Source: a virus
Lineage: Duplodnaviria > Caudoviricetes
Virus record (IMG/VR): IMGVR_UViG_3300037721_000035
Coordinates: 1 to 57,967 of that record
Length of the DNA stretch: 57,967 nt
Reading direction: 5' to 3' (one strand)
In this document: positions 13,994 to 54,616 of the stretch, in pieces
Layout of the letters: every line of letters begins with the position of its first letter
Position numbering within the stretch: the first letter of the stretch is position 1
Notes under the pieces: model-generated
Databases searched by the model: none
Told to the model about the DNA's origin: nothing
Seen by the model: only the letters and a program-made list of their open reading frames with translations
Position numbers and translations under genes: made by a program

Positions 13994-13997
13994 TAAG

Positions 13998-19326: not shown

Positions 19327-19798
19327 TGCTTCATTTAACCATGACTATAAAATAGGCGCATACGCCTACTGGATAGTGTGCGACCGGGCACGTTTTAAAC
19401 ATGCCGGGGTATTAAAGAATTGTCAGAATAATATTGAAGCTGAAGTAAAAGCAATTGCAAATGCATTAGCTAAACTTAACACATTAAATTGGACAGATAT
19501 TTATTTTGTTATAATTAACACCGATTGCATACCTGCAATAAATTTAATTAAGGAAGAAGGCAAAACAAAAGTTACCGGAACCCTTGAAGCACTGGAAGCA
19601 ATTAATAAGTATGTTACCGAACTGCGAATAAAAAGTAAAAGTCAATTTAGTCAAAAACAATACGTTGATTACCGTCATGTGAAAGCACATAACGGGACAC
19701 CGGACACCCGCAGTTATGTAAATAATTGGTGTGATAAGGCCGCAAAACAAACACTTAAAAAATATATACAAAATGGAAAAAATAATAGAGCTGCTTAG
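19304..19798 (+). CDS. Ribonuclease HI-like protein
   Basis: INTDAS, NNIEAEVKAI, NTDC, HVKAH, NNWCDKAAK catalytic pattern. Confidence 0.85.
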   Translation: MIVTINTDASFNHDYKIGAYAYWIVCDRARFKHAGVLKNCQNNIEAEVKAIANALAKLNTLNWTDIYFVIINTDCIPAINLIKEEGKTKVTGTLEALEAINKYVTELRIKSKSQFSQKQYVDYRHVKAHNGTPDTRSYVNNWCDKAAKQTLKKYIQNGKNNRAA

Positions 19799-20810: not shown

Positions 20811-21767
20811 ATGAAACATTTGCTTTTGTTACTGTTGCTGCCTTGTGTTTGTATTGCTCAAATACCGGACCCCAAACCAGGGACTTACGTAAACGATTTT
20901 ACGCGGTTGTTGGATAAGGCTGAAATTGATCGTATCAATATAGCCATAAACGAGGTAGAGAAAAAGTATAGTGTACAAATCGCCGTAGTGCTTTTAAACG
21001 ACCTCCCGGCTAATTACAACATAGAAGATTACGCACGGGAAGTAGGGCGCAAATGGCACGTAGGTAACGCCAGGAACGGGTTAGTGTATGTTGCTGCCAT
21101 CAAGCAACGTAAACAGCGATTGGAAGTATCCGCAAATTTAGAAGGCAGTATACCGGACATTACTGCTAAACGGCTTACTGATAATGTGAAACCTTTCTTC
21201 CGTAACCAGGCTTATGGATCAGGTATTATGAATTTAATCAAAGAGATCAACACGGTCTTAGATCCGGTTAAAGAGGAACAACAGCAATTAGGTGCGCAGG
21301 AACTTAGTAAAAAACAGGAGTCGAATATTTTAATAGTTGCTGGTTTGGTGCTGTGTGTATTAGGGGTAATTGCCGGGGTAGCCTTTTTTATGGAAAGGAG
21401 AAGACGCAGACAAGAAAAACAGTTAGAAGAAATAAGAAATAAACACCGCGCCGAAGAAAGGGAAATCGCTAAAGCTTACCGGGAAAAATTATATGCCGAA
21501 CGACTCAAAGACGAAAAGTTATCTAAGTTGCGGCAAGCGTATAGCGCCCCGTCAAAAATAAACGAAAACAAAAAGGAACAAAAAAATAAGGAAGAAGATA
21601 ATTATACCCCACCTATAATCCCGATACCAGACGTAACGCCCACTTATAAAAGTCCTAAATCGGATGACAACAGTAGCGACTATGGTAATTGGGGCGGGGG
21701 TTCAAGCGATACAACTAGTTCGTCAGATTCGGGATTCAGTGGCGGCGGCTCATCGAATGATTGGTAA
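20811..21767 (+). CDS. TPM-domain (YgcG-like) membrane protein
   Basis: Signal peptide, YVNDF..LL, QIAVV, W.VG...NGL, LEG.IPD, TM helix, Gly/Ser-rich tail ending SGGGSSNDW. Confidence 0.85.
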   Translation: MKHLLLLLLLPCVCIAQIPDPKPGTYVNDFTRLLDKAEIDRINIAINEVEKKYSVQIAVVLLNDLPANYNIEDYAREVGRKWHVGNARNGLVYVAAIKQRKQRLEVSANLEGSIPDITAKRLTDNVKPFFRNQAYGSGIMNLIKEINTVLDPVKEEQQQLGAQELSKKQESNILIVAGLVLCVLGVIAGVAFFMERRRRRQEKQLEEIRNKHRAEEREIAKAYREKLYAERLKDEKLSKLRQAYSAPSKINENKKEQKNKEEDNYTPPIIPIPDVTPTYKSPKSDDNSSDYGNWGGGSSDTTSSSDSGFSGGGSSNDW

Positions 21768-21770
21768 ACT

Positions 21771-21926
21771 ATGAAAATACCAAAAATATATTGGGTTGTT
21801 ATCGGGCGGGGATATTTAAAATTGATTCACATTCACACCGGTTTCAATGATAGGTGTCTAATTTGGTATTGCCACGGAAAAATAATGGATGTACTATTTA
21901 TAAAAATAACTGTATGCAAAAAATAA
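21771..21926 (+). CDS. 51-aa hypothetical protein
   Basis: Hand-read ORF filling the gap between two genes. Confidence 0.4.
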   Translation: MKIPKIYWVVIGRGYLKLIHIHTGFNDRCLIWYCHGKIMDVLFIKITVCKK

Positions 21927-22507
21927 TCTCTCTTTTTCAACGTAATTACGAGGGTGATCGACTGGTCAGAGATGAAGTAACATTCGGTGCTGACTGGGTT
22001 ATATATGGCGAAGGCGTTGCAACTCGTAAATGGGACGGACTAGCTTTGATGTATAAAGAAGGTATGTGGTACAAAAGATATGATGCAAAAGCGTTTACGG
22101 TGGACGGTGATAAGAAACGAAATTATAATCGAAAGCCGCCTGAAGATTTTATACCGGTACAAGATCCTGACCCCGTTACCGGTCATTGGCCTGGATGGGT
22201 ACCATGTGATAGAAATAACCCGGCTAATATGTTAATTATTCTGACTATTGATTTAGCAAGTCAGGTATTTTTGCCGGGTACATACGAGTTAGTAGGTCCG
22301 AAAGTAGGAACCAGGGGCGGCAGTAACCCCGAAAAATTAGATGAACATTTACTCATAAAGCACGGTGAACATGTGCTGGATGCCCCACGAACCTTTGATG
22401 AATTAAAGACGTGGTTTGCTGATAAAGATATTGAGGGTATCGTGTGGCATCATCCGGACGGACGAATGGTAAAGATCAAGAAAAAAGATTTTGGTTACAA
22501 AAGGTAA
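21914..22507 (+). CDS. RNA-ligase-like nucleotidyltransferase (DUF5565/RLIG1-like)
   Basis: ATRKWDG (motif I KxDG), GTYELVGPKV, IEGIVW, MVKIK. Confidence 0.7.
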   Translation: MQKIISLFQRNYEGDRLVRDEVTFGADWVIYGEGVATRKWDGLALMYKEGMWYKRYDAKAFTVDGDKKRNYNRKPPEDFIPVQDPDPVTGHWPGWVPCDRNNPANMLIILTIDLASQVFLPGTYELVGPKVGTRGGSNPEKLDEHLLIKHGEHVLDAPRTFDELKTWFADKDIEGIVWHHPDGRMVKIKKKDFGYKR

Positions 22508-33515: not shown

Positions 33516-34154
33516 ATGTCTTCCCTGAAATATCGCCCGGCAATCGTAGAAACGTTTTTGGATCACTATGCAACCGGGCTATACACTATTGCGGAGTTAT
33601 GTAAGCTGGTGAATATACACCCGAATACGTTTTACCATTGGCAAGCGAATGAGGAAGATTTTAAAAAGGCATTAGCGGTTGCGGATAAACGTAAGATAAG
33701 TAACATACACAGCATAGCTGTCAAAGGCGCGGTTAAACTATTAACGGGGGTAGAGTATGACGAAATATCGGAAGAATACGAGATGCCCCCCGCCCGACCT
33801 AAGTACGATTTCCTGGATGATGATGACGAACTGAATCAGTTGATCAAGCCGGAAGATCCAAAGCCGGTATTAAAAAGGCGGTTCATTACTAAGAAGATTA
33901 TTCTGCCGCATGCGAACACGGTAATGTTTACACTGCGTAACCTGGATAAAGAAAACTTCCCTGACAATAAAGACTTCAAACCTGGTAACACGCAACCGAT
34001 ACCCGTTGCTTTCATAGCACCTCCCGGAATGGTAATTAGTTTTCCATCAAATACCGATGACCCTAATGTCACAGACGCAATTAATAACAACACCACAAAC
34101 GCAGACGGCAATAATTCCACCGGTACAACAGACACCGGGGGTAGTACTACCTAA
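33516..34154 (+). CDS. terS: Terminase small subunit
   Basis: N-terminal HTH (IAELCKLVNIHPNTFYHW), G.EY.E..., TKKIILP...VMFTLRN; directly upstream of terL. Confidence 0.75.
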   Translation: MSSLKYRPAIVETFLDHYATGLYTIAELCKLVNIHPNTFYHWQANEEDFKKALAVADKRKISNIHSIAVKGAVKLLTGVEYDEISEEYEMPPARPKYDFLDDDDELNQLIKPEDPKPVLKRRFITKKIILPHANTVMFTLRNLDKENFPDNKDFKPGNTQPIPVAFIAPPGMVISFPSNTDDPNVTDAINNNTTNADGNNSTGTTDTGGSTT

Positions 34155-36402
34155 CGATCTCATACAACCGTTTGCCGATGAAAAACATCCACTGTTTTGG
34201 GCGAACCTTTGGGCAACTTCATTTATTGTAATTAATCAAGGGGGGTCATGGAGCGGTAAATGTTTAGGCGTGGATACGCCTATCCTTATGTATGATCTCA
34301 GTGTGAAAAAAGTACAAGATGTAAGAGTAGGTGATAAACTTATGGGCGTTGACGGTACCCCGCGTAATGTGCTTTCCACTACGAAAGGACAGGGGCAACT
34401 GTACGAGGTCCAACAAGGCAAGGGTATGAACTACGTAGTGAATGACGCTCATATTTTATGCCTGAAGCATTCGGGAAAAGATGTATACAAGACAATTAAA
34501 CAAAAGAAAATATACCAGGGTAGAAAATATTTTAATGGTATACATAAGAAAACAGCAGACGAATATTTTAAATTAAGTAAACGGGAAGCACGGCAGTACA
34601 ATGGTTTTAAAACCGGGGTTGAATTACCCGAAAGACCAGTGTTACTAGATCCGTATTTTTTAGGACTTTGGTTAGGTGATGGATTGAAAGCAGGAGCAAC
34701 AATTACTAATATAGACCCGGAAGTAAGAGAATATTTAAAACAGTTTGCGAAAGACAACGGTTTGAACTACACGCAGGATAAAAGTGATAAAAACAATATA
34801 CGGTTGGGTAAAACTTTCGGTAAGACTAACATAGTTACGCAAGCACTACGGTTTTACGATATTCTAAATAACAAACACATACCTCACGACTACTTACACA
34901 ATAATAGGGAAACACGTTTGCAATTATTGGCGGGTTTGATAGATAGTGACGGCGGGGTAGAAAACGGTATGTTCTGCATAACGGGGTGTGATAAATCTTT
35001 GATGCAACAGGTGGTAACTCTTTCACGGAGTTTAGGGTTTTACACTTGTTTTAGAAAAAAGATAGCCAAAATGAAACGTAAGGACGGAAGCGTTTACGTT
35101 TGTGATGCCTGGACAGTGTCTATATCATCGAATGATTACAGTATCATACCGACTAAAATAGCCCGGAAGAAATTAACAGGTACTTATAAATTCCGGGATT
35201 GCTTGCAAACTAAAATAAAATTACAGGATAAAGGTCAGGGGTGGTATTATGGCTTCCAGTTGGATGGTGATAAAATGTTTATGCTGGAAGATTTCACGGT
35301 TACCCATAACACGGAATGTATAATACGGGTATTATTTGCCTATGCGATAAATTTCCCACGCTATCGTATAACCGTAGTTACTAATACCATTCCCAAATTA
35401 AAGGAAGATGCGTTACGCATAGCTTTAGAGGTAGCAGACAAACCGAAAGTAGCCATGTTTATAAAACAATATAACATGACTGATCGGGTGTTTACGTTTA
35501 CTAATGGCAGTCATATAACATTCAAAAGTTTCGAAAACGAGTTACAAGCACAAGGGGAAAAGAGAGACATACTATATGTGGTAGAGATGCCACGTATAAC
35601 ATGGGCTACTTTTTATCAAGCGTACCTGCGTACCGAGGTACGGGTATTTGGTTGCTATAACCCTACCAGCTCATTCTATGTTCACCGTAACATACTGGCA
35701 AACAAAGTAGAATTTAACAGCGTGCAGGTGTTCCGTAGTTGGCACATACATAACCCGTATTTACCACAGCTTAAACATGATCAGCTGGAAAGGATCACCG
35801 ATAAGATCATGCATGCCGTATATGCCCGCGGGTTAACCGGCATGCTGCGTGGTACGATCTACCCCGATTGGGTGTTAGTGGAAGATGATGAATACGGCGG
35901 GCCTGACGGCTCGATATGGGGCGTCGATTGGGCATTCAGCGAAGACAAGCGGGCGGACCCGTCAGCGTGTGTTCGAGTTAAACGTAATCCACCTAACCGG
36001 TTGGACCTGGATTATATTATCGACCTGGTAGCCTACGATCAAGGTATATCGGCTCCCGAAATTGCGCAGGTGCAGAAAGCAGAAGGGTACAAAGATGGTC
36101 AGGCAACCTACTGTGACCACGCCCTACAACAGATCTACGAACTACAGCTGAACGGCATCACGGGCGCCACGACAGCTGTTAAAGGGCCAGGGTCACTACT
36201 TGCCCGTATTCTGTTTGTGAAGCGTAAACGGATCGGGGTAACCAGGCGCAGCCGGGCCATATGGGAAATAGAGCAACCCGCCTACAGGTTTTTGGAAGTA
36301 GAGGGCGTTGTTACCAATACACCGATAGATGAATACAACCACGCTATGGATGCGTCGGGGTACGCAATCTATTCAGATGCACTTACTTACGGGTATACAT
36401 AA
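34057..36402 (+). CDS. terL: Terminase large subunit (PBSX-like) containing an intein
   Basis: Walker A QGGSWSGK|T split by the intein; YNP, NPYL, GVDWAF, PIDEYNHAMDA.Y nuclease motifs. Confidence 0.92.
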   Translation: MTLMSQTQLITTPQTQTAIIPPVQQTPGVVLPNDLIQPFADEKHPLFWANLWATSFIVINQGGSWSGKCLGVDTPILMYDLSVKKVQDVRVGDKLMGVDGTPRNVLSTTKGQGQLYEVQQGKGMNYVVNDAHILCLKHSGKDVYKTIKQKKIYQGRKYFNGIHKKTADEYFKLSKREARQYNGFKTGVELPERPVLLDPYFLGLWLGDGLKAGATITNIDPEVREYLKQFAKDNGLNYTQDKSDKNNIRLGKTFGKTNIVTQALRFYDILNNKHIPHDYLHNNRETRLQLLAGLIDSDGGVENGMFCITGCDKSLMQQVVTLSRSLGFYTCFRKKIAKMKRKDGSVYVCDAWTVSISSNDYSIIPTKIARKKLTGTYKFRDCLQTKIKLQDKGQGWYYGFQLDGDKMFMLEDFTVTHNTECIIRVLFAYAINFPRYRITVVTNTIPKLKEDALRIALEVADKPKVAMFIKQYNMTDRVFTFTNGSHITFKSFENELQAQGEKRDILYVVEMPRITWATFYQAYLRTEVRVFGCYNPTSSFYVHRNILANKVEFNSVQVFRSWHIHNPYLPQLKHDQLERITDKIMHAVYARGLTGMLRGTIYPDWVLVEDDEYGGPDGSIWGVDWAFSEDKRADPSACVRVKRNPPNRLDLDYIIDLVAYDQGISAPEIAQVQKAEGYKDGQATYCDHALQQIYELQLNGITGATTAVKGPGSLLARILFVKRKRIGVTRRSRAIWEIEQPAYRFLEVEGVVTNTPIDEYNHAMDASGYAIYSDALTYGYT
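34261..35310 (+). mobile_element. Intein (350 aa) with LAGLIDADG homing endonuclease
   Basis: Starts CLGVDTPILM, block B VNDAHIL, LGLWLGDG and LAGLIDSDG, ends VTHN followed by Thr+1. Confidence 0.95.
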
Positions 36403-39077: not shown

Positions 39078-39253
39078 TGAAAAAAGTCAAAACCATATGG
39101 TTGTGGTTTTCGTGGATCATATGTACCGTATACACGTTACTGGTGGTATGCATTGGTATCATATTAGCAACCGATAAAATAATTCTTCCTATAGCCCTTT
39201 GGCATTTGACCCATATCAATAATTTCTTAACCTCTCTAAACTTTTTACAATGA
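39062..39253 (+). CDS. Small membrane protein
   Basis: Hydrophobic ORF. Confidence 0.45.
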   Translation: MDTALMKKVKTIWLWFSWIICTVYTLLVVCIGIILATDKIILPIALWHLTHINNFLTSLNFLQ

Positions 39254-39612
39254 ACTTTTACACAGTGTTGGGGCTTATATTTCTAATTCTAAAATTATGC
39301 GGTGCAATAACGTGGCCCTGGGTGTGGGTAGTATGTCCATTCTGGATACCGTTTGTAATTCATAGCGTCGTGTTTTTATTTGCCATCTTAAGGGTGTACG
39401 TGTTTTCTACAAAACAGCAGCGGGAGCAAATGAGACGTATAAAAGAAAATCGGGAACATTTAAAAAGCTGGAAAGAGCGCATGGAAGAAATTCAAAAAAG
39501 CCGGTCCAACCTGGTAATACTTATATGTCTGTCGCTGTTGATAGGGGGTTGTTCAGTAAGTAAACCCGGCTTACGTTGTCCTGAAATTACTAAAGGTTCG
39601 TTTAAGAAATAG
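39250..39612 (+). CDS. Membrane protein
   Basis: IFLILKL.G.I.W.W.WV..P.WIP motif common in phage membrane proteins. Confidence 0.65.
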   Translation: MNFYTVLGLIFLILKLCGAITWPWVWVVCPFWIPFVIHSVVFLFAILRVYVFSTKQQREQMRRIKENREHLKSWKERMEEIQKSRSNLVILICLSLLIGGCSVSKPGLRCPEITKGSFKK

Positions 39613-42994: not shown

Positions 42995-43060
42995 TCCTGA
43001 AATACTCTAACACAAATACCGGTGCCATCTTTGGGCCGGTATTATGTTAAAATAGAATTT

Positions 43061-43747
43061 ATGAAGGTACTAGTAGCTTGTGAGGAAAGTCAGACAGTGA
43101 CAAAAGCGTTTAGAGAGAGAGGACATGAGGCGTATAGTTGTGATATCTTACCGTGTAGCGGGGGGCATCCCGAATGGCATATCCAAAAAGATGTTACACC
43201 GATATTGTATGGATCGAAACTTAAAATAACGAACGCCTCTTATGATGACGGTTTTGATTTGATAATATCATTCCCACCTTGCACAGATCTTACCATAAGC
43301 GGTGCGCGGTGGTTTGATAAAAAACGATTATCAGGAGAACAGGAATCTTCTTTAGAATTTTTTTTCCATGTTTGGTACTATAGCCATTGCACTGAAAACC
43401 CTATTGGTATAATGAACGGCGGCGAATATATAAAAAAATGGTTTCCTAAGATATACCGTAAATTGAATGATAACTGTTTCCCATTCAAACCAACCCAAAT
43501 AATTCAACCGTGGCAGTTTGGCCATATGGGAAATAAAGCTACTTGTTTATGGTTAAATAAATTACCGGAATTAATACCGACGAACATCGTTGGTCCGATG
43601 CAGGGAGGAAATATAAGAGCCGAAAGACTAAGGCTTAAAAGGGAATGGAACAAAGTACATTACGCGGCTCCCGGGCCTGACCGCGCTAAAATAAGATCTA
43701 AAACATATACAGGTATTGCAGAAGCTATGGCAGATCAGTGGGGTTAA
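43061..43747 (+). CDS. DNA cytosine-C5 methyltransferase-like protein (phage type)
   Basis: VLVACEES, FPPCTDL (catalytic PC), ENP, QPWQFGH..K.TCLWL, RSKTY.GIA.AMA.QWG. Confidence 0.75.
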   Translation: MKVLVACEESQTVTKAFRERGHEAYSCDILPCSGGHPEWHIQKDVTPILYGSKLKITNASYDDGFDLIISFPPCTDLTISGARWFDKKRLSGEQESSLEFFFHVWYYSHCTENPIGIMNGGEYIKKWFPKIYRKLNDNCFPFKPTQIIQPWQFGHMGNKATCLWLNKLPELIPTNIVGPMQGGNIRAERLRLKREWNKVHYAAPGPDRAKIRSKTYTGIAEAMADQWG

Positions 43748-43791: not shown

Positions 43792-43888
43792 AGTTATCCA
43801 ATTACTTCAGCGGTGGGGCATTTGGATAGTCATAAACAACAAATGGAACCCGTTCTGTAAACACCGCTTACAGGCGGGTTTTAGTTTT
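43792..43888 (+). ncRNA. Candidate two-hairpin kissing-loop RNA / attenuator
   Basis: Hairpin loops AGCGGTG and CACCGCT are complementary; the second hairpin has a T-rich tail. Confidence 0.45.
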
Positions 43889-43893: not shown

Positions 43894-44280
43894 ATGGCAA
43901 AGAAGAAAAAACAAAGTAAGTGGCGGGAATACGTTAGCAGTGGTCAACGTGATAAGGATAAAGAAGAGTTTGCTAAACGACAGTGGCGGGACTTCCATAG
44001 ACATATGCACGAAAAACACGTTAACGGTGAATGGGGTCAATCGAAAGCCTGGTTTGATGAGACAAACTCAGGAGAACAAATAGAGGTAATGATATGGATT
44101 GCCGATATACCGGGTGAAAAAATACCACACGGTTTATTAGCACCTGTTGGGTGGGATAACTACAGTTCCGGAGAAATAACGGGAAGTCATATACGAATAC
44201 ATAAAGACAACCAAATTAATACAAACGTATTTGAGACACTTAATTTTGAAATGGTTAAAGACATTGACATATGGGAGTAG
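43894..44280 (+). CDS. Hypothetical protein
   Basis: ORF after the RNA element. Confidence 0.55.
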   Translation: MAKKKKQSKWREYVSSGQRDKDKEEFAKRQWRDFHRHMHEKHVNGEWGQSKAWFDETNSGEQIEVMIWIADIPGEKIPHGLLAPVGWDNYSSGEITGSHIRIHKDNQINTNVFETLNFEMVKDIDIWE

Positions 44281-44426
44281 ATAGAACCGAACCTAAAACA
44301 AAACAGGAGATTGAACAAGAGCGAAATAGCATAGATGAAGAATACGAAAAATATGTCGATCAACACGGTACTAGTGAAGACGCGGACAATTGGCGCGACG
44401 CAGCGCATCAATCGATTGAAAACTAA
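44271..44426 (+). CDS. 51-aa acidic peptide
   Basis: Hand-read ORF MGVDRTEPKTKQEIEQ... Confidence 0.45.
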   Translation: MGVDRTEPKTKQEIEQERNSIDEEYEKYVDQHGTSEDADNWRDAAHQSIEN

Positions 44427-44441
44427 TTTTTATTAATTGTC

Positions 44442-45134
44442 ATGATTACAGATATCGTAATACCGTACCGGTTTAGTCAGGTTACCCGTGATCAGGAATT
44501 GCGGTATGCCTTAAGAGGTGTTGAAAAACATTTGTCGAATGTCGGTGACGTGTACTTAATTGGAGATAAACCGAAATACGTAACCAACTGTGGACACATT
44601 CCTTATAAGGAATACAACTGGTACACCCAGTTAACAAGAAACATATACGCCAAACTTGTTGCCGCATGTTTGCACGCGCACGTATCAGATCCGTTTTTAT
44701 ATATGAACGATGACCATTTCCTACTAGCAGATTTTGAAGCCGATAACATACCTTACTATCACAAAGGAAACGACTGGACTGGTAAAGGTAAGTACCTGGT
44801 TACGCTTGAGCGTACCCGAAAGATTTTCCCAGCTACGAATAATTTCGATACACACGCCCCCATGTTAATACATAAGAAAATGTTTTTGGAAGCCATGCGT
44901 ATGTTAAACTGGAAATTGGATTTCGGGTATGCAATTAAAACGGCGTATTGTGCCTCTTACGGTATTCGCGGACAGTATGCCCCGGATTACAAATTGGACC
45001 GTGCCCCGACATACCAGGATCTATTTGACATAGATCAACGTATGTTCTTTTCCGTTGGAGATAAGGCTATGACCTTACAAATGATATTTTTCCTGGAATC
45101 CAAATACCCGAATAAAAGTAAATACGAAATTTAA
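44442..45134 (+). CDS. Stealth-family sugar(-phosphate) transferase
   Basis: DIVIPY (CR1-like), ELRYALRG..K...DVYLIG..P and FLYMNDDHFL (CR2), HAPM (CR3). Confidence 0.75.
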   Translation: MITDIVIPYRFSQVTRDQELRYALRGVEKHLSNVGDVYLIGDKPKYVTNCGHIPYKEYNWYTQLTRNIYAKLVAACLHAHVSDPFLYMNDDHFLLADFEADNIPYYHKGNDWTGKGKYLVTLERTRKIFPATNNFDTHAPMLIHKKMFLEAMRMLNWKLDFGYAIKTAYCASYGIRGQYAPDYKLDRAPTYQDLFDIDQRMFFSVGDKAMTLQMIFFLESKYPNKSKYEI

Positions 45135-45140
45135 AACACC

Positions 45141-45527
45141 ATGCACCCCGTAGATTTTAAAGAAAGCAACGCTACGTTAGTAAAACCCGAAAACATGACC
45201 GCTGAAGAATGCGGAGATTTACGGGGGCGCTTAATTCCTACTTTCCGGGGTTCGCAATACACAACTTGTTGGGAAGCGAATTATGAAGATATTGAATTGT
45301 TAAATAATGGTCAGGCCTTGATCATTGAATTCCATTCCGATGAATACATTTACACAGCTATAAATACACAGTTGATACAATATCCCGCTTTGCAAGCCCA
45401 TAAAAGCGCAGTGGTTTGGTTACCTGGTGCGGATGATATGTTCAATATTAAGTCGGGTAAACCTATTTATATAACATTTCTTAGTGTAGGTTTTCCCGTT
45501 ATTTCAGTATACGTAAAAGAAAAATAA
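45141..45527 (+). CDS. Hypothetical protein with internal duplication
   Basis: MHPVDFKESN..L.KP.NMT..EC..L; two W.[AP]..[ED]D.....G....I.F units. Confidence 0.6.
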   Translation: MHPVDFKESNATLVKPENMTAEECGDLRGRLIPTFRGSQYTTCWEANYEDIELLNNGQALIIEFHSDEYIYTAINTQLIQYPALQAHKSAVVWLPGADDMFNIKSGKPIYITFLSVGFPVISVYVKEK

Positions 45528-45529
45528 TT

Positions 45530-45760
45530 ATGCAAGATCAAGAAATACAGGAACCCGAACAGACAGTGCAATCAGTAGAGAAGGAAACGGGAGTAATCTT
45601 GCCTGTCTCTTTAATTCGGTGGCTGTGTTACACAACAATATTCGGGTTGATGCTATTACCTTTCTACATACAGGATGGAATTAGTTTCGGCAAATATTTC
45701 GGCGTGTGTTTAGTGTTAGGTCATTTCGCGGGGCAGCTTAATAAAATAATAGACAAATGA
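45530..45760 (+). CDS. Small 2-TM membrane protein
   Basis: Two hydrophobic segments. Confidence 0.5.
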   Translation: MQDQEIQEPEQTVQSVEKETGVILPVSLIRWLCYTTIFGLMLLPFYIQDGISFGKYFGVCLVLGHFAGQLNKIIDK

Positions 45761-46068
45761 GTAGATATAACATGTGCACAGATCAACCGGCGCAAATAGA
45801 TTGCAGGAATACAAGGTGTAAATTCCATACGGATAAGGGATGTAGTAACGTTTCGCCGGCGCTTACTATATCGCCGCAACCCGGCGGAGGATTAGACGTC
45901 CGGTGTTGGAGCTTTGAAGAAAAACCTAAATGCTTAACAGAACGAATATTAGAAATATTACGTGATCATACTGAAACCCGGTGCGGAATAACACATATTG
46001 GTACGTATTCGTTTAGAGAAATAACAGAACAAATAACCAAACTAATAAAAGATGAAAACCCTGGATGA
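45757..46068 (+). CDS. Cys-rich hypothetical protein
   Basis: C...C.F....C pattern; coupled ORF. Confidence 0.5.
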   Translation: MSRYNMCTDQPAQIDCRNTRCKFHTDKGCSNVSPALTISPQPGGGLDVRCWSFEEKPKCLTERILEILRDHTETRCGITHIGTYSFREITEQITKLIKDENPG

Positions 46069-46750
46069 ATTAGGTTTACAATACGAAACGGACAAAGCAA
46101 GTAACGGGCATAACTACTTGCAGTTCTACGAAAGATTTTTAGAACCGTTACGTGACAAACCTATAACGCTTGTAGAAGCGGGGGTAGGCGGTTACGAATA
46201 CCCGGATAGAGGGGGTGAATCATTACGGATGTGGCGGCAATACTTTCATAATCCACATGCTTATATTGCTGGTTTTGATCTGCATGATAAATCAGGAGTG
46301 AGTATATTAGGGGTCCATATTTTAAAAGGTTCACAGACAGATCGTGAATTTTTAGAAACTAATTTCGGGTATGGCCCATATGATGACGTGCCTGACAAAC
46401 CGTACATTGATATTTTTATTGATGATGCCAGTCATGTAAACCCCCTATCCATTGAGACGTTTAAAATAATGTTCCCGTTGGTTAAACCAGGAGGAATCTA
46501 TATTTGGGAAGACATACACACATCTTATTGGGTCGAAGGGTACCGGGGGTTGCCTGACCCCGATGTGAATAATTATATGAATAATTATCGCCCACCACAC
46601 GAATCTACAGCGGCAACGTTCCTGCACCGTCTACAAGACGGTATGCAGGTAGATACTTTAGAGGAACAATACCGGGGGCCATTTGATGGGCATATTGCCG
46701 AAATGCATTTCATGCGGAACACCTGCGTAATTATTAAACGAAAACAATAA
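46052..46750 (+). CDS. SAM-dependent sugar O-methyltransferase (MycE/TylE/OleY-like)
   Basis: TDK...HNY, EAGVGGY, GGESLRMW..YF, GSQTD, DIFIDDASH, KPGGIY..EDIHTSYW. Confidence 0.8.
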   Translation: MKTLDELGLQYETDKASNGHNYLQFYERFLEPLRDKPITLVEAGVGGYEYPDRGGESLRMWRQYFHNPHAYIAGFDLHDKSGVSILGVHILKGSQTDREFLETNFGYGPYDDVPDKPYIDIFIDDASHVNPLSIETFKIMFPLVKPGGIYIWEDIHTSYWVEGYRGLPDPDVNNYMNNYRPPHESTAATFLHRLQDGMQVDTLEEQYRGPFDGHIAEMHFMRNTCVIIKRKQ

Positions 46751-46756
46751 ACCACT

Positions 46757-46960
46757 ATGGTTATTGAATGTACCATACGGACGCCCCAATTTAAAGGCAG
46801 TCAGGAAGTTTTCGAAATGAAAGATCAAACCGGTACATTCGATACGGAGTCTTTACTATTTACACCAGATAATAATTTTAAAAACAATGACGGGTCTGTA
46901 TTTGCACACAAAGTACAATTTCACAGCCGGGAACAATTTAATAAATACCGAATAAAATAA
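46757..46960 (+). CDS. Hypothetical protein
   Basis: Tightly packed ORF. Confidence 0.5.
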   Translation: MVIECTIRTPQFKGSQEVFEMKDQTGTFDTESLLFTPDNNFKNNDGSVFAHKVQFHSREQFNKYRIK

Positions 46961-46965
46961 TTAGT

Positions 46966-48543
46966 ATGCTCACGGTAAAGTTTAATGGAAATTTAGGAAA
47001 CAAGTTATTCCAATTGTGGTCTTTGGTGGGGGTTGCTAAAGAACTAAAACACAACGTTGCTTTCCCTGCTAGTGAAATATACGATTATTTTGATGGGTCA
47101 TTTACAGTTCACACCGTGCCCCTTGATCTGGAATATAAAGAACCAGCATTCAACTTTACCCCTGTTGAAATTGATACAGTAGAAGGGGCAACATTAAACG
47201 GATACTTCCAATCAGAACGGTATTGGTCACGCTGTGAGAAGGAACTTAGAAAAATGTTTACGTTTAAAAAAACATTCGTAAACGAAACAAAGGACAAATT
47301 ACCGGGGCTGTTTAACAAGGAAGTAATTTGTATTTCCATACGACGCGGTGATTTCGTAGGGAATAAAACCTACTACCAATTACCAATTACGTATTACCTG
47401 GGTGCGCTGCTTACTGAGTTTCCGGATTTCCAAACAAAATATAATTTACTGGTACTGTCAGACGATCCAGATTATTGCAAAGCTCATTTTGATTGTCTTG
47501 ATAACGTTTATTACGGTGCGGATCTAAATGCATTTGAGCAACTTTGTTTAGGATCGTTAGCGCAATACCATATCATCAGCAACAGTACTTTTTCCTGGTG
47601 GACCGCATATCTTTCCAAAAGTAAAAAGGTTATACGTCCTAAACATAACTTTGGCGAGGAATACCGCAAGACACACCCGGAACATGATTATTGGCCTGAA
47701 TGGAAAAATTGGCAGGTGTTCGATCATGAAGTGTATAAAATACCTTTAAAGGATACTACGTTTATGATTCCGGTTTTCTTTGACCATTCAGACAGGAAAG
47801 CTAATTTAGATCTCACGGTGTGTATGTTGCAGCGGGACTTTGATACCAATGTTTCTGTAATGGAAAACAACGGTACTAAGTTCGCATACATGAAACAATG
47901 GACCGAATACGAATCAGTATCTAACCCGTATTTCCATCGTACCCGAATGTTAAATGAGATGGCAGTAAAAGCAAGTACACCGTACATTGTAAATTGGGAT
48001 GCTGATGTAATTGTGCCGCCCCTTCAAGTGTATTTATCAATCCAATTATTACGTAACGATTATGCTAATTTCGCATACCCATACGACGGTAGATTTGTAC
48101 GGGTGTTACGCAAGCCTTTCTTTAAACAAGTAAGTATGGGCCTGGATATTGGTGTATTGAAAAATGCTGACAATTTTCAGTTCGGTCCTATCAAAGGTAA
48201 GATCATGGCAACGTCATCCGTAGGCGGCGCGGTTGCTATGCAGCGGGAGTGTTTCATTGCGTCCGGTATGGAAAATGAAAACATGATCAGCTATGCACCT
48301 GAAGACTGTGAACGTTGGGACCGGTGGCATAAGCTGGGGTACGTTGTAGTACGGGTACCTGGGAAGCTATACCATATGGATCATTTTTGCGGCCCAAACA
48401 GTTGCAGTAAAAACCCTTTTTTTAATAAAAATCATGATGAACTGGACCAACTACGCGGGATGACAGCAATCGAATTAAGAAAACGTGTGGATAGTTGGCC
48501 GTGGCGGGCGAAAGCCTTACCTGTGGCGGATTCTACAGATTAA
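46966..48543 (+). CDS. Bifunctional glycosyltransferase: GT11 (alpha-1,2-fucosyltransferase-like) fused to a GT-A fold GT2/GT7-like domain
   Basis: GNLGNKLFQ, GYFQSE, IRRGDF, SDD, NSTFSWW (GT11); DAD, VGGA, ENENMISYAPED, LYHMDH (GT-A). Confidence 0.85.
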   Translation: MLTVKFNGNLGNKLFQLWSLVGVAKELKHNVAFPASEIYDYFDGSFTVHTVPLDLEYKEPAFNFTPVEIDTVEGATLNGYFQSERYWSRCEKELRKMFTFKKTFVNETKDKLPGLFNKEVICISIRRGDFVGNKTYYQLPITYYLGALLTEFPDFQTKYNLLVLSDDPDYCKAHFDCLDNVYYGADLNAFEQLCLGSLAQYHIISNSTFSWWTAYLSKSKKVIRPKHNFGEEYRKTHPEHDYWPEWKNWQVFDHEVYKIPLKDTTFMIPVFFDHSDRKANLDLTVCMLQRDFDTNVSVMENNGTKFAYMKQWTEYESVSNPYFHRTRMLNEMAVKASTPYIVNWDADVIVPPLQVYLSIQLLRNDYANFAYPYDGRFVRVLRKPFFKQVSMGLDIGVLKNADNFQFGPIKGKIMATSSVGGAVAMQRECFIASGMENENMISYAPEDCERWDRWHKLGYVVVRVPGKLYHMDHFCGPNSCSKNPFFNKNHDELDQLRGMTAIELRKRVDSWPWRAKALPVADSTD

Positions 48544-48548
48544 AGAAC

Positions 48549-48591
48549 TTACCAAAAATCCGGTAACCTCCTGCATTATACGCAGGGGGTT
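48549..48591 (+). promoter_or_regulatory. Operator variant plus hairpin upstream of the portal promoter
   Basis: TTACC-AAAAATCC-GGTAAC; AACCTCCTGC..GCAGGGGGTT hairpin. Confidence 0.55.
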
Positions 48592-48613
48592 ATCGTCGTT
48601 TGTACAATTTATA

Positions 48614-48643
48614 TTTGGTAAGGTGAAAAATATCATATATTTG
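48614..48643 (+). promoter_or_regulatory. Promoter of the head operon
   Basis: TTTG-N18-TATATTTG. Confidence 0.6.
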
Positions 48644-48668
48644 AAGTTAAGACACCTACCAATATTAA

Positions 48669-50201
48669 ATGTCAAAAGTACTCGAAATCGTAAAGGCGGT
48701 TGTAAATGGAGACTTCCAAACGGCTATTAAATCAGTCGGCGTGCAAACCATCCCCCTCACCGCTTCCACATATCGAGGGGATAGCATGGGCAATGGTTGG
48801 TCTTTTTCTACAAGCGGGGGTATCAATTCTTACTTCAAATATCAAGACCGTCACAGCTGTACAACTGCATACGATCGTTGCCCGGGTTTGAATGCCGTGA
48901 TCAATAAAAAAGCACAGGCATTTATAAACGGTGAAGTGTGGGTATTGGATAATGACGGCAAGGTTGCTAACGGTATATTCGCAAAACAACTACGTAAACT
49001 TTTAGATAAACCGAATCTCTTTCAGAGTTGGGACCAATTTCAAGCACAGCAATACATCTACATACAGACCTACGGATTTTGCCCGATGTTAGCGATTAAG
49101 CCGGAAGGTTATAAAAAGAACATAGACGCATCAAGTTTATGGAATATACCACCAACCATGTTCAGCCCGCACATGACGGGTAAAATGTTACGGCAAACCG
49201 ATATTGAAAAAGTAATTGATTACGTAGATATTACTTTTAACGGTGAGACTTCGCAGGTATCCATCAAGGATATATGCATCCTAAAAGATTTAACAACCTC
49301 TACCACTTCCCCGATATTTCCAGATTCCCGTATCAAGTCTTTAGAAATGCCGATCAACAATCAGATCGGAGCGTATGAGTCACGTAATGTATTAATCAAT
49401 TATCGCGGCGCCCTGGGTATTTTCTCAAGGGATTTAGGTAACAATGGGCAGGTGGGTGTACCTCCTATTACCGATAAGGAAAAAGAAAATCTACAAAAAG
49501 ATTTCAAAAGATACGGGATACGTAACAATCAGTGGCAGTTTATCATCACATCAGCCGCGTTAAAGTGGCAACAGGTTAGTGTAGCTACTAAAGACCTGAT
49601 GTTATTTGAGGAAGTTAAATCTTCGAACGAGGCTATTTGCGATAAGTATTCATACCCCTTTGAATTACTTGCCAATGAGAAAGGGACCACGTTTGATAAC
49701 CGCACAGAAGCAGGTAAAGACCTGTATCAAAATGCAATCATACCTGAAGCGTTAAGCATATACAAACAGCTTAACGTTTTTTTCGAAACGGCAACTTACG
49801 ACATAAAATTAGATGTCGATTACAGTAAAGTCCCTTGCCTTCAGGAGAATGAGAAAGCGAGAATGGAGGCGCGGCTTACGCGTAACGAGGCATACAAAAT
49901 AGAATGGGATAATGATCTTATTACACGTAACCAGTGGCGTATTGCTAATGGAGAAGATCCCATTGAGGGGGACGATTTCAGAAGATCAGAAATTGCAGCG
50001 CTGACTAAAGAGCCACTAGTGAATAGTATAGGTGTTGGAGGTGTGCAGGGTATAGTAGCATTGTTAACTACGCCAGGTATTCAGCAACAGGCCATGCAAG
50101 CTACTTTGGAAATTGTATTCGGATTGCCACCCGCAGACGCTGCAAGAATGGCCGTACCAGCCGTAGCACCTGTAACCAATCAAACCCAAAATAATGAATA
50201 A
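48669..50201 (+). CDS. Portal protein (HK97-like)
   Basis: L.KPNLFQSW..F, DLMLFE, IC..Y..P.ELL, TFDN, IIPEA, ITRNQWR...G..PIEGDD. Confidence 0.88.
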   Translation: MSKVLEIVKAVVNGDFQTAIKSVGVQTIPLTASTYRGDSMGNGWSFSTSGGINSYFKYQDRHSCTTAYDRCPGLNAVINKKAQAFINGEVWVLDNDGKVANGIFAKQLRKLLDKPNLFQSWDQFQAQQYIYIQTYGFCPMLAIKPEGYKKNIDASSLWNIPPTMFSPHMTGKMLRQTDIEKVIDYVDITFNGETSQVSIKDICILKDLTTSTTSPIFPDSRIKSLEMPINNQIGAYESRNVLINYRGALGIFSRDLGNNGQVGVPPITDKEKENLQKDFKRYGIRNNQWQFIITSAALKWQQVSVATKDLMLFEEVKSSNEAICDKYSYPFELLANEKGTTFDNRTEAGKDLYQNAIIPEALSIYKQLNVFFETATYDIKLDVDYSKVPCLQENEKARMEARLTRNEAYKIEWDNDLITRNQWRIANGEDPIEGDDFRRSEIAALTKEPLVNSIGVGGVQGIVALLTTPGIQQQAMQATLEIVFGLPPADAARMAVPAVAPVTNQTQNNE

Positions 50202-50448
50202 CGAACTGCGGTTGAAACAGGAACTGCGGGCAAGTGTTAAAAATATTTGCGAATTATACGGCATACCGGAAATGTTAATACAACCACTAGCAACTATCAA
50301 TCTAAATACGATGAAAAACAAAGATAAAAAAGCCGACGATAAAAAGCAGGAGGTTAAAAAATTAACCGATGAAGAAAAGAAGTTGATCCAACAAGAGGAT
50401 CAAAAAAAGAAACTTAAAGCTTTCAATAAAGAAAATATAATTAAATGA
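50194..50448 (+). CDS. Small Lys-rich hypothetical protein (start may be 50311)
   Basis: Fills the gap between portal and protease. Confidence 0.45.
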   Translation: MNNELRLKQELRASVKNICELYGIPEMLIQPLATINLNTMKNKDKKADDKKQEVKKLTDEEKKLIQQEDQKKKLKAFNKENIIK

Positions 50449-51305
50449 GCCGCGTACTTTTGGAAATCGATCACAGCTTACCGAAGTCGGAACTGTTCAA
50501 ATTTTTAAAGGATAACAAAAAGGCATTGATTGCCCAAAAGAAAGCAACCTTTAAAAGATTCGACGGCGCCCCTAATTTCTATTCTAATTTCAATGTAATA
50601 GAAAAAGACGGTACCACAAAAGCCGTGGGTGATACGGTTATCCCTGAAGATGTGGACTCAATAATGGTAGATGTGGCAGCAAACACTTCATTATGGTGCG
50701 ATACTGCAATGGATGTTTTATTACGTGATTCTGCTAAAAAATCTATCCGCGAAAGGAAAGGTCTGATACCTCACATACACGATCACCTGTATGAAGTGTT
50801 GGCCGAAGTGGGGGATGTTAAGAACATTTTCTACCAGGACGTACCGTTGAAACAGTTAGGGTTGAAACAGGAGGGAACCGGGCAGGTGCTGACTTTCAGA
50901 ACGGAGATAGTGAAAGAATATAATGAAAAAATATTTCATAAGTACCGGCTTAAGAAAATTAAACAACACTCAATAGGCTTACGCTACATCGAGTTGTTAT
51001 TAGCCATTAATGAACCGGACGATGATTATTATGAAGATGAATACAAAGTTTGGAAGAAATATTTTGATCAAATTATAAATAAAGAAGTACCAGAAGAAAG
51101 GGGTTTCTTTTGGGCTGTTCCGCAATACATGTTACTGGAAAACAGTTGCGTGTTAATCGGTGCGAATCAGTTAACCCCAACGCTATCAACATCAGAAAAG
51201 CAATCCACCAACGAACAGCCGTCCGATGATGACACTGAGAAGGGGCCGGAAGATAATGTGGTATTTGATGTAGAAGAAGCACTGAAGACAGTAAAATTTT
51301 TCTAA
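50445..51305 (+). CDS. Prohead maturation protease-like protein
   Basis: HIHDH, QHSIG, ENSCV..GAN.LTP; between portal and capsid. Confidence 0.7.
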   Translation: MSRVLLEIDHSLPKSELFKFLKDNKKALIAQKKATFKRFDGAPNFYSNFNVIEKDGTTKAVGDTVIPEDVDSIMVDVAANTSLWCDTAMDVLLRDSAKKSIRERKGLIPHIHDHLYEVLAEVGDVKNIFYQDVPLKQLGLKQEGTGQVLTFRTEIVKEYNEKIFHKYRLKKIKQHSIGLRYIELLLAINEPDDDYYEDEYKVWKKYFDQIINKEVPEERGFFWAVPQYMLLENSCVLIGANQLTPTLSTSEKQSTNEQPSDDDTEKGPEDNVVFDVEEALKTVKFF

Positions 51306-51323
51306 TCAAAAAGTAAAAACATT

Positions 51324-52571
51324 ATGTTAACGAAAGAGCAAATGGACTCCCTGGTAGCTGATTTAGGCAAACAGGCGGCAGTCGAAATTAAAACGCAGGT
51401 GGATGCACTTGATTTGAAATTGGATACTAAGTATAAGGACGTACTAGCGGGTACGGTTACCATCAAGGACTTCAACGAGTTTAAGGAATCAAACATTAAA
51501 CAGTTAAATGAAGCACTGAAAAAATTGGAAGATATAGCCGAAGCCAATAAAGCACAGGCTGAAAAAATTTCAGGTTTACTGGAAAATCCAACCGGTAAGA
51601 AAGACGTTTCAATGGCTGAATTTTTAACACCGTTCATCCCTAAGTTAGCGGAGTTGAAAGCCAAAGGAACCGGATACATTGAGGTAACCGATACCGAAAT
51701 GAAAGCGGCCGGTATTACCTCTATAGGTGGATCTATTACACCAGGTACGCCGTACCTTCCCGGTTTGGCTGGTACGCCGCTTGAAATGTTCGACATTGTG
51801 CAAGCACCTGATTTCATGATCACGCGCGTTGACCTGGGTACTACCGATCAATACAAATTAGCGTGGGTGAACGAAACCGGTATGGAGGGCGCAGTCGATA
51901 CGAACATTGCGGAAAGCGGTCTGAAACCATTGGTTCAACATAAATTTTCAGTGGAAATTTCCACGGCTGAAAAAGTTGCAGCCTATTCAATTCTTACTGA
52001 AGAATTCGAAGAAGACGTACCGGGTTTAGCGTCTGAGGTTCGCGGTATGTTGCAACGCGACGTTATGCGGGCGCTTGATAATGCGATACAGACCAAAGTA
52101 TTTTTGGCCGCAAAAGCGTTTAACCTCACTCAGTTGGATGCTGATATATATCAAGCCAGTTTGTGGGATGCTGCGTATGCATTGCTTACACAAGTAGGGT
52201 TTAATAACTTTACTCCCAATACGCTTGCAGTAAACTGGATCACCAACGCCAAAATGCAGATGGCCAAAAATGCGAATGGTACATATTTGTTACCTCCTTT
52301 CAAACAGGAGATATTAGATATGTTGGTTCGTGCTAACAAGATCGAAACTAACGTAGGTTTGGCCGGTGACTTGAAACAGTTCCGGGTACGTATGTACAAA
52401 GGGTACACCCTGCGTATGGGTTGGATCAATGATCAATTCATAAAGAACGAGTTCGCTATTTTGGGTGAACTGCGTTATCATGGATTTATCAGTGATAACC
52501 GGAAATTCGCATTAGCCAAAGGCGATCTGAATGCAATCGCTGTACAGATCAACGGAACACCTGGTTCATAA
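51324..52571 (+). CDS. Major capsid protein (HK97 fold, N-terminal coiled-coil delta domain)
   Basis: AESGLKP, KVAAY..LTEE..ED, K.ANG.YL, AGDLK, F.KNEFAILGE.R; ends TPGS. Confidence 0.92.
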   Translation: MLTKEQMDSLVADLGKQAAVEIKTQVDALDLKLDTKYKDVLAGTVTIKDFNEFKESNIKQLNEALKKLEDIAEANKAQAEKISGLLENPTGKKDVSMAEFLTPFIPKLAELKAKGTGYIEVTDTEMKAAGITSIGGSITPGTPYLPGLAGTPLEMFDIVQAPDFMITRVDLGTTDQYKLAWVNETGMEGAVDTNIAESGLKPLVQHKFSVEISTAEKVAAYSILTEEFEEDVPGLASEVRGMLQRDVMRALDNAIQTKVFLAAKAFNLTQLDADIYQASLWDAAYALLTQVGFNNFTPNTLAVNWITNAKMQMAKNANGTYLLPPFKQEILDMLVRANKIETNVGLAGDLKQFRVRMYKGYTLRMGWINDQFIKNEFAILGELRYHGFISDNRKFALAKGDLNAIAVQINGTPGS

Positions 52572-53659: not shown

Positions 53660-54616
53660 ATGGCTACATTAAGACTAAACAAACCGGTGTGCGCTGTTTC
53701 TTACGGTAACGTCGGTTATGGTAACTGCTATTTGGACCCTAAAAAAATTGTTGGGGCTTTCCAGGTAACAGAGGATTTTCTCATTGATCAGGATGCTTTA
53801 CAGGATCTTCAAAGTTTCTTAGAAGAAAAAGTATTAGCGGTTATCGGTTCTCGTATTTTCCCATATCACAAGTTCATAGGTATCACGGATAACACGGAAG
53901 ATACTCAAATTGAAACCACTGATTACGGAACAAAAATACCTACCCGTGACGGTGATTACGATCTTACTTTCAGGTTCACCGAAGGCGGGGTACAACTGTT
54001 TCAGGAAATGCAGAAGAACGCCGGACCTGGTAAGTATTTTGTATTCTATGATCAGGACGGTGTGTTATACGGCTATAAAACCAAAGCCGGTTTAAGAGGC
54101 ATACCTATGTTATTCCTTGCAAAACCGTGGAAGTTTGCAACCGGTAGCACTTCAGCGCAGTATCTGTTACAGTTCATCTTTGCGCCGATTTACATCAACT
54201 ACGGTAACCTGGGTTTTGTTAAAGCAATTGATTTCAATTTCTTTGATATTAAAGGGTTGCAAGATGTTACGTTAGAATTGGTGGATCTGACAGGTAATGT
54301 GGCTACGGTTTTAGCGCTTACTTCTATCAGCGCTGTAAACCTGTATACTGCCTTCAGCACTAACTTGGAACAGGTAGCGGCCTGGGTGGTTAAAGATGAA
54401 GACGGTAATACCGTACCCGTTACAGGGGTGGCAGCAGTACCGGCCGCACAAGGTGATCAGGGCGGCTTTGCAGTGACTATGGGGTCCACGGAATTTAACG
54501 CTGCCGATAAGGTATATATGCAATGGGCCGGGCCGAATGTATTGGCTGAAACACCTATACTGGTAAACGGTTATGATGTTTCCATACCGCTGGAAATAGA
54601 GGCGCCAGGTTCGTAA
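53660..54616 (+). CDS. Major tail tube protein
   Basis: Position after connectors and before chaperone/TMP; size 318 aa; ends APGS. Confidence 0.75.
   Translation: MATLRLNKPVCAVSYGNVGYGNCYLDPKKIVGAFQVTEDFLIDQDALQDLQSFLEEKVLAVIGSRIFPYHKFIGITDNTEDTQIETTDYGTKIPTRDGDYDLTFRFTEGGVQLFQEMQKNAGPGKYFVFYDQDGVLYGYKTKAGLRGIPMLFLAKPWKFATGSTSAQYLLQFIFAPIYINYGNLGFVKAIDFNFFDIKGLQDVTLELVDLTGNVATVLALTSISAVNLYTAFSTNLEQVAAWVVKDEDGNTVPVTGVAAVPAAQGDQGGFAVTMGSTEFNAADKVYMQWAGPNVLAETPILVNGYDVSIPLEIEAPGS

Follow-up and report, generated by a model that had tools for sequence, protein, structure and literature searches.

To our knowledge, glycosylation of virions has been established experimentally for mycobacteriophages only. 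Freeman et al. (2023, Cell Host Microbe 31:1216) are said to have described it there as virion O-glycosylation, for Che8 (gp108-110), Corndog and Myrna. Passages of two further papers report the Che8 and Corndog virions to be glycosylated and place the glycans of Mycobacterium phages on capsid and tail-tube subunits, at their C-termini (PMC12363180, PMC12619734), and the same passages of the former add that this shields the particles from antibodies (PMC12363180); the cluster O phages, according to part of another paper, add an O-methyltransferase (PMC11600133). The capsid protein and the tail-tube protein end in NKTGS and YSDGS in Che8 and in PLVGS and IKGDS in Corndog, and the Che8 transferase genes abut the structural genes across the genome ends. 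A gene cluster comparable with this system is present at 44442-48543 of the Caudoviricetes record IMGVR_UViG_3300037721_000035 of IMG/VR, which was analysed over its whole length of 57,967 bp (the window). The cluster encodes a Stealth-type transferase, a MycE/TylE-like sugar O-methyltransferase, and a protein in which a glycosyltransferase family 11 (GT11) domain is fused to a GT-A domain, and it stands just before the head and tail genes, where Pro-Gly-Ser forms the C-terminus of both the major capsid protein and the tail-tube protein. We put at roughly 0.6 the probability that this cluster glycosylates the phage's own virion at these two C-terminal serine tags, possibly through a sugar-phosphate link.

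The likeness to the mycobacteriophage system lies in soluble phage transferases encoded beside the structural genes and in the C-terminal ends, which are ..GS, ..DGS or ..GDS there and ..PGS here. The host phylum differs, being Bacteroidota and not Actinomycetota. The closest cultured relative of the capsid protein is that of Cellulophaga phage phi19:1 (33% identity across 60% of the protein's length; genome of 57.4 kb, with the gene order kept), Cellulophaga being a member of the Flavobacteriaceae in the Bacteroidota, and the next cultured relatives are from Leeuwenhoekiella and Olleya phages. Among bacterial genome contigs with matches, 8 of 11 are named as Bacteroidota types and most are phage-sized contigs from metagenome-assembled genomes; one match is in the isolate Paraflavitalea pollutisoli (Chitinophagaceae), on a contig of 4.27 Mb, where its neighbours are a terminase, a portal and a capsid-like protein ending GNSSQS. 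A blastn search with 44001-52000 of the window found no match among cultured phages. When the cluster proteins were compared with Che8 gp108-110 by blastp, the GT-A domain alone was matched, to gp109, over 39 residues and with an E-value of 0.003 that refers to an eight-protein database. A further difference is the sugar-phosphate link that the Stealth family of the window enzyme would imply. No such link is known to us for the mycobacteriophage glycans.

The capsid protein ends NGTPGS and the 318-aa tail-tube protein EAPGS, so that the shared Pro-Gly-Ser reported in the first-pass annotation is seen in both sequences. Just 4 of the 84 complete + strand open reading frames (ORFs) of the window end in Ser, and a Gly-Ser end is found in the capsid protein and the tail-tube protein only. 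The tail-tube protein is identified from its fold and position. Its AlphaFold2 model (predicted local distance difference test, pLDDT, 87.0) finds tube proteins in Foldseek, namely lambda gpV (2.1e-4) and those of Bxb1, T1, SPP1 and monocin, with TM-scores (0.24-0.32) that are low because of an extra C-terminal domain. Its gene is in the tail-tube slot, just before the chaperone and tape-measure genes, and is syntenic with that of gp092 of phage phi19:1, a structural protein confirmed by mass spectrometry (MS). All 15 capsid relatives with at least 60% identity end in PGS, the residues before it being variable. Among the 99 capsid relatives of 37-73% identity, a final Ser is seen in 66, preceded by Gly in 54 of them, and [GS]S occurs in the last five residues of 78, and in nine distant relatives (24-39% identity) the ends are mostly not tag-like. 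A role of the Ser end in proteolysis or cross-linking was considered; no evidence for it was met, and no search was aimed at it.

The Stealth-type protein was assigned to its family in the first-pass annotation, and this holds at the level of the superfamily, by profile and by predicted fold, and not at the curated Pfam cut-off for Stealth_CR2; Stealth_CR1, CR3 and CR4 gave no Pfam match to it at E-values up to 0.1. A profile built from 11 phage relatives matched the catalytic domains of GNPTAB, a GlcNAc-1-phosphotransferase, in the PDB (1.1e-07, 5.1e-07, 1.8e-06, 2e-05) and CpsY of M. tuberculosis (0.0019), the single sequence giving weak matches alone (0.11-0.32). The AlphaFold2 model (pLDDT 94.8) has CpsY (8j2n; E 1.5e-11, TMq 0.67) and GNPTAB (3.5e-09 to 1.5e-07, TMq 0.68-0.72) as its top Foldseek matches, ahead of GT6 enzymes. 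Residues D90, D91, D136, H138, P140, R21 and R25 are invariant in the phage family. D90-D91 align with the NDD of GNPTAB, and H138, within a D-x-H-x-P motif, aligns with a His of the GNPTAB H-M-P-H stretch in the CR3 region; a "catalytic NDD motif" and a catalytic His-956 are described for GNPTAB in a passage of PMC11418123. The protein of the window resembles GNPTAB and CpsY in its predicted GT-A-like Stealth fold and in profile similarity over CR2-CR3, and its DD and His may correspond to the catalytic residues of GNPTAB, but it is unlike them in having some 230 aa, no accessory domains and no membrane anchor, and in its place beside phage head and tail genes.

As far as we know, all Stealth enzymes characterised so far take hexose-1-phosphate from a UDP-sugar and place it on a hydroxyl group. 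The capsule polymerases of N. meningitidis serogroups A and X are Stealth hexose-1-phosphate transferases, and CpsY is deposited in the PDB as "Exopolysaccharide phosphotransferase". Because characterised members transfer sugar-1-phosphate, a phosphodiester link would be the natural expectation for the phage enzyme as well, although the acceptor proposed here, a protein serine or a protein-linked sugar, differs from the polysaccharide or N-glycan mannose used by Stealth enzymes. Compact Stealth-like proteins appear, from their sequences, to be a large and uncharacterised family of phage enzymes. The protein library holds 5212 clusters of them at 50% identity (E <=0.001), 1024 of these at E <=1e-30, mostly of 220-250 residues, together with fused forms of 708 and 784 aa, and in IMG/VR there are 200 confirmed stretches with a Stealth-like gene.

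The other two enzymes named in the first-pass annotation are recognisable in the same way. For the methyltransferase, a phmmer search of the PDB gave 3ssm (2.2e-30; query residues 4-171 against chain residues 184-340) and 8ia9, deposited as "Demethylmacrocin O-methyltransferase" (9.8e-26), which we take to be MycE and TylE; the similarity covers the catalytic domain, an N-terminal region of about 180 residues present in both of these enzymes is missing, and in Pfam there is a weak match to Methyltransf_24 (0.078). In the fusion protein, Glyco_transf_11 is found above its gathering score (5.4e-21, 75.5 bits, cut-off 23.9), residues 78-247 corresponding to profile positions 127-295 of 298. The proposed Glyco_transf_7C match of the second half falls below its cut-off (0.0042, 17.1 bits against 23, residues 412-473), and the GT-A assignment is instead backed by the feature and structure neighbours of residues 259-525 in the Atlas, which are Glyco_transf_7C/GT2 clusters (TM 0.86-0.90), and by homologues, many of which have PF02709 as a precomputed Pfam family. 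A profile of the fusion found nothing significant among PDB sequences. No membrane segment is present in any of the three enzymes (maximum 19-residue hydropathy <=1.03), as had been noted from the sequence, and their identities and their place beside the head genes are borne out by Pfam and PDB matches, predicted fold and gene order.

The fusion has 859 homologues at E <=0.001, many on phage-sized contigs and many with an additional N-terminal methyltransferase domain. When the fusion protein was used as a single sequence, the search for related loci returned nothing, and the loci described here came from an alignment-based search. Within 80 viral loci with the fusion, 19 have a Stealth-like gene and 28 a MycE-like methyltransferase. 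In one of them (L281:9974-12328) a single 784-aa ORF combines GT11, GT-A and Stealth-like domains, directly after a MycE-like methyltransferase. Two close relatives of the window (L259, L325) have an identical gene order and PGS ends.

The association of the Stealth-like gene with the tags was followed in 160 loci around relatives of the capsid protein (L002-L161), taken from viral and metagenome contigs and containing 123 distinct complete capsid proteins. In many of these loci a gene related to the Stealth-like one adjoins the portal gene. Presence or absence of the gene was scored for 34 of the 123 and for the window, by a match in the locus, by a search of the whole record, or by coverage, without a match, of 9 kb or more upstream and 5 kb or more downstream; the remaining 89, in which the flank is outside the coverage, were left out. 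The 35 capsid proteins divide into 12 that have the gene and a Ser end, 22 that have neither, one that has the gene with another end (AGSSCPA), and none with a Ser end without the gene. The tail-tube protein ends in Ser in 9/9 Stealth-positive loci with a complete homologue, compared with 1/7 of the Stealth-negative loci. Four further complete genomes with a Stealth-like gene have capsid ends DSGS or ASGS and the tail-tube end SASS, and the tail-tube protein of L345 also ends in Ser. For G001, which has GS tags on both proteins and in which the upstream region was outside the locus, the gene was predicted blind and was found (2.4e-31) about 5.7 kb upstream, across the record ends. Neither G002 (LINAA / NWIAQ for capsid and tail tube) nor G003 (ALETA / DIVVS) has a Stealth-like gene anywhere in its complete record.

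A test had been proposed of whether the cluster accompanies Ser-ended capsid and tail-tube proteins in relatives. The association stands for the Stealth-like gene but not for the complete cluster, since relatives of the GT11/GT-A fusion and of the MycE-like methyltransferase are absent from all 160 capsid-relative loci. In a tree of capsid proteins trimmed of their last 12 residues, the Stealth-negative loci L010 (next to L004 and the window) and L093 (next to L014) are nested among positives, and in both of them the tag is gone from the capsid and the tail-tube protein together.

The pairing extends to other capsid families. From the stretches with a Stealth-like gene 80 loci were kept, with 12 distinct complete kinds of capsid protein, and 9 of these 12 end in Ser, a count that is biased because five of the capsid seeds were first picked for their Ser end; the other three end in AGSSCPA, DFGNV and SSGSGSEV. 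Five Ser-ended capsids belong to three PHROG families described as "major head protein", and the background of Ser ends in the same loci is 75 of 1185 ORFs (6.3%). As a check on the bias, 112 of 126 capsid-sized ORFs with other ends were scanned against PHROGs (10 near-identical terminase-like ORFs and 4 known capsids being left out), and among the 25 commonest of the 186 families found there is no major-head family, these being terminases, portals, transferases, helicases and methyltransferases. In a distant lineage (L197; also L198-L200 and L125/L126) the Stealth-like gene follows directly on the capsid gene with the AGSSCPA end. The two products encoded next in L197 have no PHROG match; one is of 258 aa (12705-13481) and ends in GSGSGS, the other of 329 aa (13550-14539) and ends in IEVSSS.

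In cultured phages, tblastn with the Stealth-like protein matched 16 records, all 16 of them actinophages. Mycobacterium phage Gaia has capsid and tail proteins ending ..APSSGS and ..QVVGS, and six other structural proteins checked in this phage have no Ser end. The corresponding ends are ..DAGSGS and ..QLVGSV in Mycobacterium phage Eponine and ..SPGSTS and ..FCVAS in Streptomyces phage TurkishDelight, where the Stealth-like gene lies in the interval from the major tail gene to the adaptor gene, beside an annotated glycosyltransferase. The other matched phages include Yvonnetastic, Nebkiss, Cece, OneUp, BrutonGaster, Juliette and Boilgate. The Paraflavitalea pollutisoli prophage also carries both the Stealth-like gene and the tags, and Cellulophaga phage phi19:1 has neither the gene nor Ser ends. 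The portal protein of Eponine (L252, 3912-5507) ends ..DDAGSS as well, and it may be that more than two particle proteins bear a putative tag in some phages.

The genes that accompany the Stealth-like gene vary. The cluster slot is occupied in L015 by two GT2 genes and methyltransferases of FkbM and Methyltransf_24 type, and in L009 by a methyltransferase and a HAD hydrolase; in three complete tagged genomes of the subclade with IIGS/VTSS ends, which have the Stealth-like gene, no match to GT2, GT1 or the GT11/GT-A fusion was found. Since the Stealth-like gene is kept while the other enzymes are swapped or missing, it would be the constant part of the system and the others its variable extensions. 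As far as can be told from its genes, the cluster of the window is one functional unit.

Under the reading favoured here, a cytoplasmic module would glycosylate the phage's own particle, with the Pro-Gly-Ser-COOH tags as acceptors. The Stealth-type enzyme would act at the tag, placing sugar-1-phosphate either on the terminal Ser or on a first sugar added by the GT-A domain, after which the glycan would be lengthened and capped by the GT-A and GT11 domains together with the MycE-like O-methyltransferase. Relatives would keep the Stealth-like gene and the tag and swap or drop the extenders, as happens in variable glycan loci. From the observed gene content, folds, tags and co-occurrence we infer the action of the enzymes on the tags, the phosphodiester link, the sugars (fucose and O-methyl groups, a composition suggested by family membership) and a shielding function. 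The genomes in which the Stealth-like gene stands without extenders would suggest that the sugar-phosphate is perhaps attached to the serine itself. In its strongest form, in which a Stealth-type enzyme attaches sugar-1-phosphate directly to the serine of tags of the Gly-Ser-COOH type across at least two bacterial phyla, this is a tentative proposal that we consider rather doubtful. A complex prediction for the Stealth-like enzyme and the tail tube's C-terminal domain (score 0.00) gave no verdict and counts neither for nor against the proposal.

The chemistry expected of such direct action is known from eukaryotes. Protein serine is phosphoglycosylated in Dictyostelium, as GlcNAc-1-P-Ser, and in Leishmania, as Man-1-P-Ser, but there in the secretory pathway and on Ser-rich repeats. 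We know of nothing comparable in a virus particle or in the bacterial cytoplasm. The literature searched, a collection of main texts that lacks the primary mycobacteriophage paper, yielded no account of phage particles as the target of a Stealth-type enzyme and none of a Bacteroidota phage with a glycosylated virion.

Several observations weigh against glycosylation of the virion by this cluster. The claimed virion glycan is deduced from genes, and the choice of seeds that biases the count of Ser-ended capsids belongs here too. The Stealth_CR2 match is sub-threshold (E 3.3e-07, 30.9 bits, cut-off 39.4), the enzyme is unrelated to the transferases of Che8 and Corndog, including those known to be required in Che8 (hhalign probability 0.1 against gp110), and a 76-aa ORF with two hydrophobic segments (45530-45760; hydropathy 1.66) lies within the cluster. 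One Stealth-positive group has the capsid end AGSSCPA, and the Stealth-negative G003 has a Ser-ended tail-tube protein. In HK97 (L338) the capsid protein (4028-5185) ends FSSGS and the major tail subunit (6733-7437) TLTIS, and no coliphage record gave a Stealth-like match by tblastn, which means that a Ser end is not sufficient and may be present in the absence of this enzyme. The capsid tree has four changes of the gene and three of the tag, with just two (starred branches) to four independent pairs, so that a sign test cannot reach significance and the tree test is without statistical power. Finally, enzymes of the Stealth, GT2 and GT11 kinds are typical of capsule and O-antigen loci.

This last point would suit a different explanation, that a glycan of the host envelope is what the enzymes remodel, the Ser ends being unrelated. 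The target could be lipopolysaccharide, capsule, exopolysaccharide or glycoproteins of the host, and the gain might, for instance, be that superinfection is blocked or that progeny do not stick to debris. The hydrophobic ORF is in keeping with this, as it has a homologue directly after the Stealth-like gene in L014/L015 (about 848-1060), and GtrB-like families are present in some Stealth-positive loci. Phage transferases that change the serotype are known, as a passage of PMC12619734 relates. Such conversion by Gtr (GtrABC-type) systems is, however, membrane-bound and belongs to temperate phages, whereas the three enzymes of the window have no hydrophobic segment. Pfam and PHROG scans of the window took in about 58 of its 84 ORFs, about 26 small ORFs being outside, and among those scanned there is no Gtr family, no flippase, polymerase or lipid-carrier priming transferase, and no integrase; with no integrase seen and with its own polymerase and primase-helicase, lysogenic conversion by this phage is unlikely. 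Action on the envelope would also leave unexplained both the joint gain and loss of the gene and the two tags and the position of the gene inside the structural module of TurkishDelight, and we regard it as improbable. Slightly different is the possibility that this lineage of capsid and tail-tube proteins has had its Ser-COOH ends for structural reasons since long ago, and that the co-occurrence reflects shared ancestry; the target of the enzymes would then be some other virion protein, a small molecule or a protein of the host. The Ser ends on both HK97 proteins in the absence of such enzymes, and the two to four independent contrasts on the capsid tree, would be as expected from this. It does not readily account for the nested Stealth-negative L010 and L093, which are without the tag on both proteins at once, for the recurrence of the pairing in capsid families that are not related and in phages of a second host phylum, or for the presence of the tag in phages that are reported to be glycosylated, and it too seems quite improbable.

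Glycosylation of modified bases in the phage DNA, as a defence against restriction and with the DNA methyltransferase directly upstream of the cluster providing the first step, can be considered as well, given that phage transferases hypermodifying DNA with diverse glycans are cited in PMC12619734 and that glycosylated 5-hydroxycytosine is the subject of another paper. Phage DNA glucosyltransferases need a modified base, but no enzyme that would make one, neither a thymidylate-synthase-like hydroxymethylase nor a TET/JBP-type dioxygenase, is found among the scanned ORFs of the window. The methyltransferase is separated from the cluster by a terminator-like hairpin (43864-43877) and does not travel with the Stealth-like gene, its one match among the capsid-relative loci being in L134, which is Stealth-negative. 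The co-variation with tags on proteins would again be unaccounted for, and this explanation is very improbable.

If the cluster does glycosylate the virion, a strategy of serine tags on the two most abundant particle proteins would be widespread in phages of Bacteroidota and other bacteria, and would be served by an enzyme of another kind, a sugar-phosphate transferase that is probably distinct in its chemistry. Direct phosphoglycosylation of serine, if it occurs, would be a cytoplasmic chemistry undescribed for phages, and the variable extenders would give rise to strain-specific virion glycans. This would bear on the surface chemistry of phages, on immune recognition of therapeutic phages, on adsorption to mucus and polysaccharide matrices, and on the interpretation of virion MS or cryo-EM data.

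The features of the window are listed in Table 1. The cluster is placed between the DNA methyltransferase and the portal gene, with all of its ORFs on the + strand and tightly spaced. It was called one operon upstream of the portal and head genes in the first-pass annotation, and the tight co-directional run before the portal gene is indeed there, the operon itself being plausible from the sequence. The strong hairpin at its end, which separates it from the portal gene, would suggest that the cluster is its own transcription unit, although terminator-like sites in the region are not above expectation (4, against 4.4 in shuffles).

Table 1. Positions of the enzyme cluster, the tagged structural genes and other features in the window (57,967 bp)
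Feature	Position	Strand	Basis and remarks
Terminase, small and large subunits	33516-36402	+	PHROG/Pfam scan
DNA methyltransferase	43022-43747		phrog_757 7e-59, no Pfam match; directly upstream of the cluster
Compact Stealth-type transferase P0004, 230 aa (superfamily-level assignment)	44442-45134	+	Stealth_CR2 sub-threshold; phrog_7999 4e-22; PDB profile; predicted fold
Three small ORFs inside the cluster	45141-45527, 45530-45760, 45757-46068	+	No significant family (Pfam, PHROG)
MycE/TylE-like sugar O-methyltransferase P0005, catalytic domain only, 232 aa	46052-46750	+	PDB matches; phrog_21658 "methyltransferase" 2.1e-33
Small ORF, 67 aa	46757-46960	+	No family found (Pfam, PHROG)
GT11 (alpha-1,2-fucosyltransferase-like) domain, residues 1-258 of P0003 (ORF 46966-48543, 525 aa)	46966-47739	+	Glyco_transf_11; phrog_2644 3.4e-44 (residues 7-247)
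GT-A (GT2 / Glyco_transf_7C-type) domain, residues 259-525 of P0003	47740-48543	+	phrog_15655 9.4e-41; Glyco_transf_7C sub-threshold
Terminator-like hairpin	48561-48595	+	14-bp stem, 8 G-C pairs
Portal gene	48669-50201	+	Pfam Phage_portal 6.8e-19
HK97-type major capsid protein P0001, 415 aa	51324-52571	+	phrog_10 4.4e-12; PF05065 precomputed; Pro-Gly-Ser tag at 52560-52568
Tail-tube protein P0002 with extra C-terminal domain, 318 aa	53660-54616	+	Predicted fold, position; Pro-Gly-Ser tag at 54605-54613

The record has direct terminal repeats, a listed CheckV completeness of 67, and all of its genes on the + strand. Its replication genes, from PHROG and Pfam matches, are those for a primase-helicase, a helicase, a DNA polymerase, an exonuclease and a single-stranded DNA-binding protein, and it also encodes an Amidase_2 lysin. 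The structural run begins with the portal and major capsid genes and continues through the tail genes to the tape-measure gene, which runs off the end. PHROG matches to the large terminase ORF (34057-36402, 781 aa) cover residues 61-425 and 619-775; the stretch of about 190 residues that separates these two blocks is unmatched and may represent an insertion, for instance an intein or a homing endonuclease domain. The DNA methyltransferase has a GTG start in the ORF list with an in-frame ATG 13 codons downstream, and contains an F-P-P-C stretch. Small Tmemb_185A-like membrane ORFs are found at 39250-39612 of the window and in L024 (6225-6560), in the latter directly downstream of the Stealth-like gene. 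Further products of the window are an ECF-type sigma factor, an RNase H, a TPM-domain protein and an RNA-ligase-like protein (18823-19326, 19304-19798, 20811-21767, 21854-22507), and a gene of the RNA-ligase-like kind is also present near the Stealth-like gene in L024.

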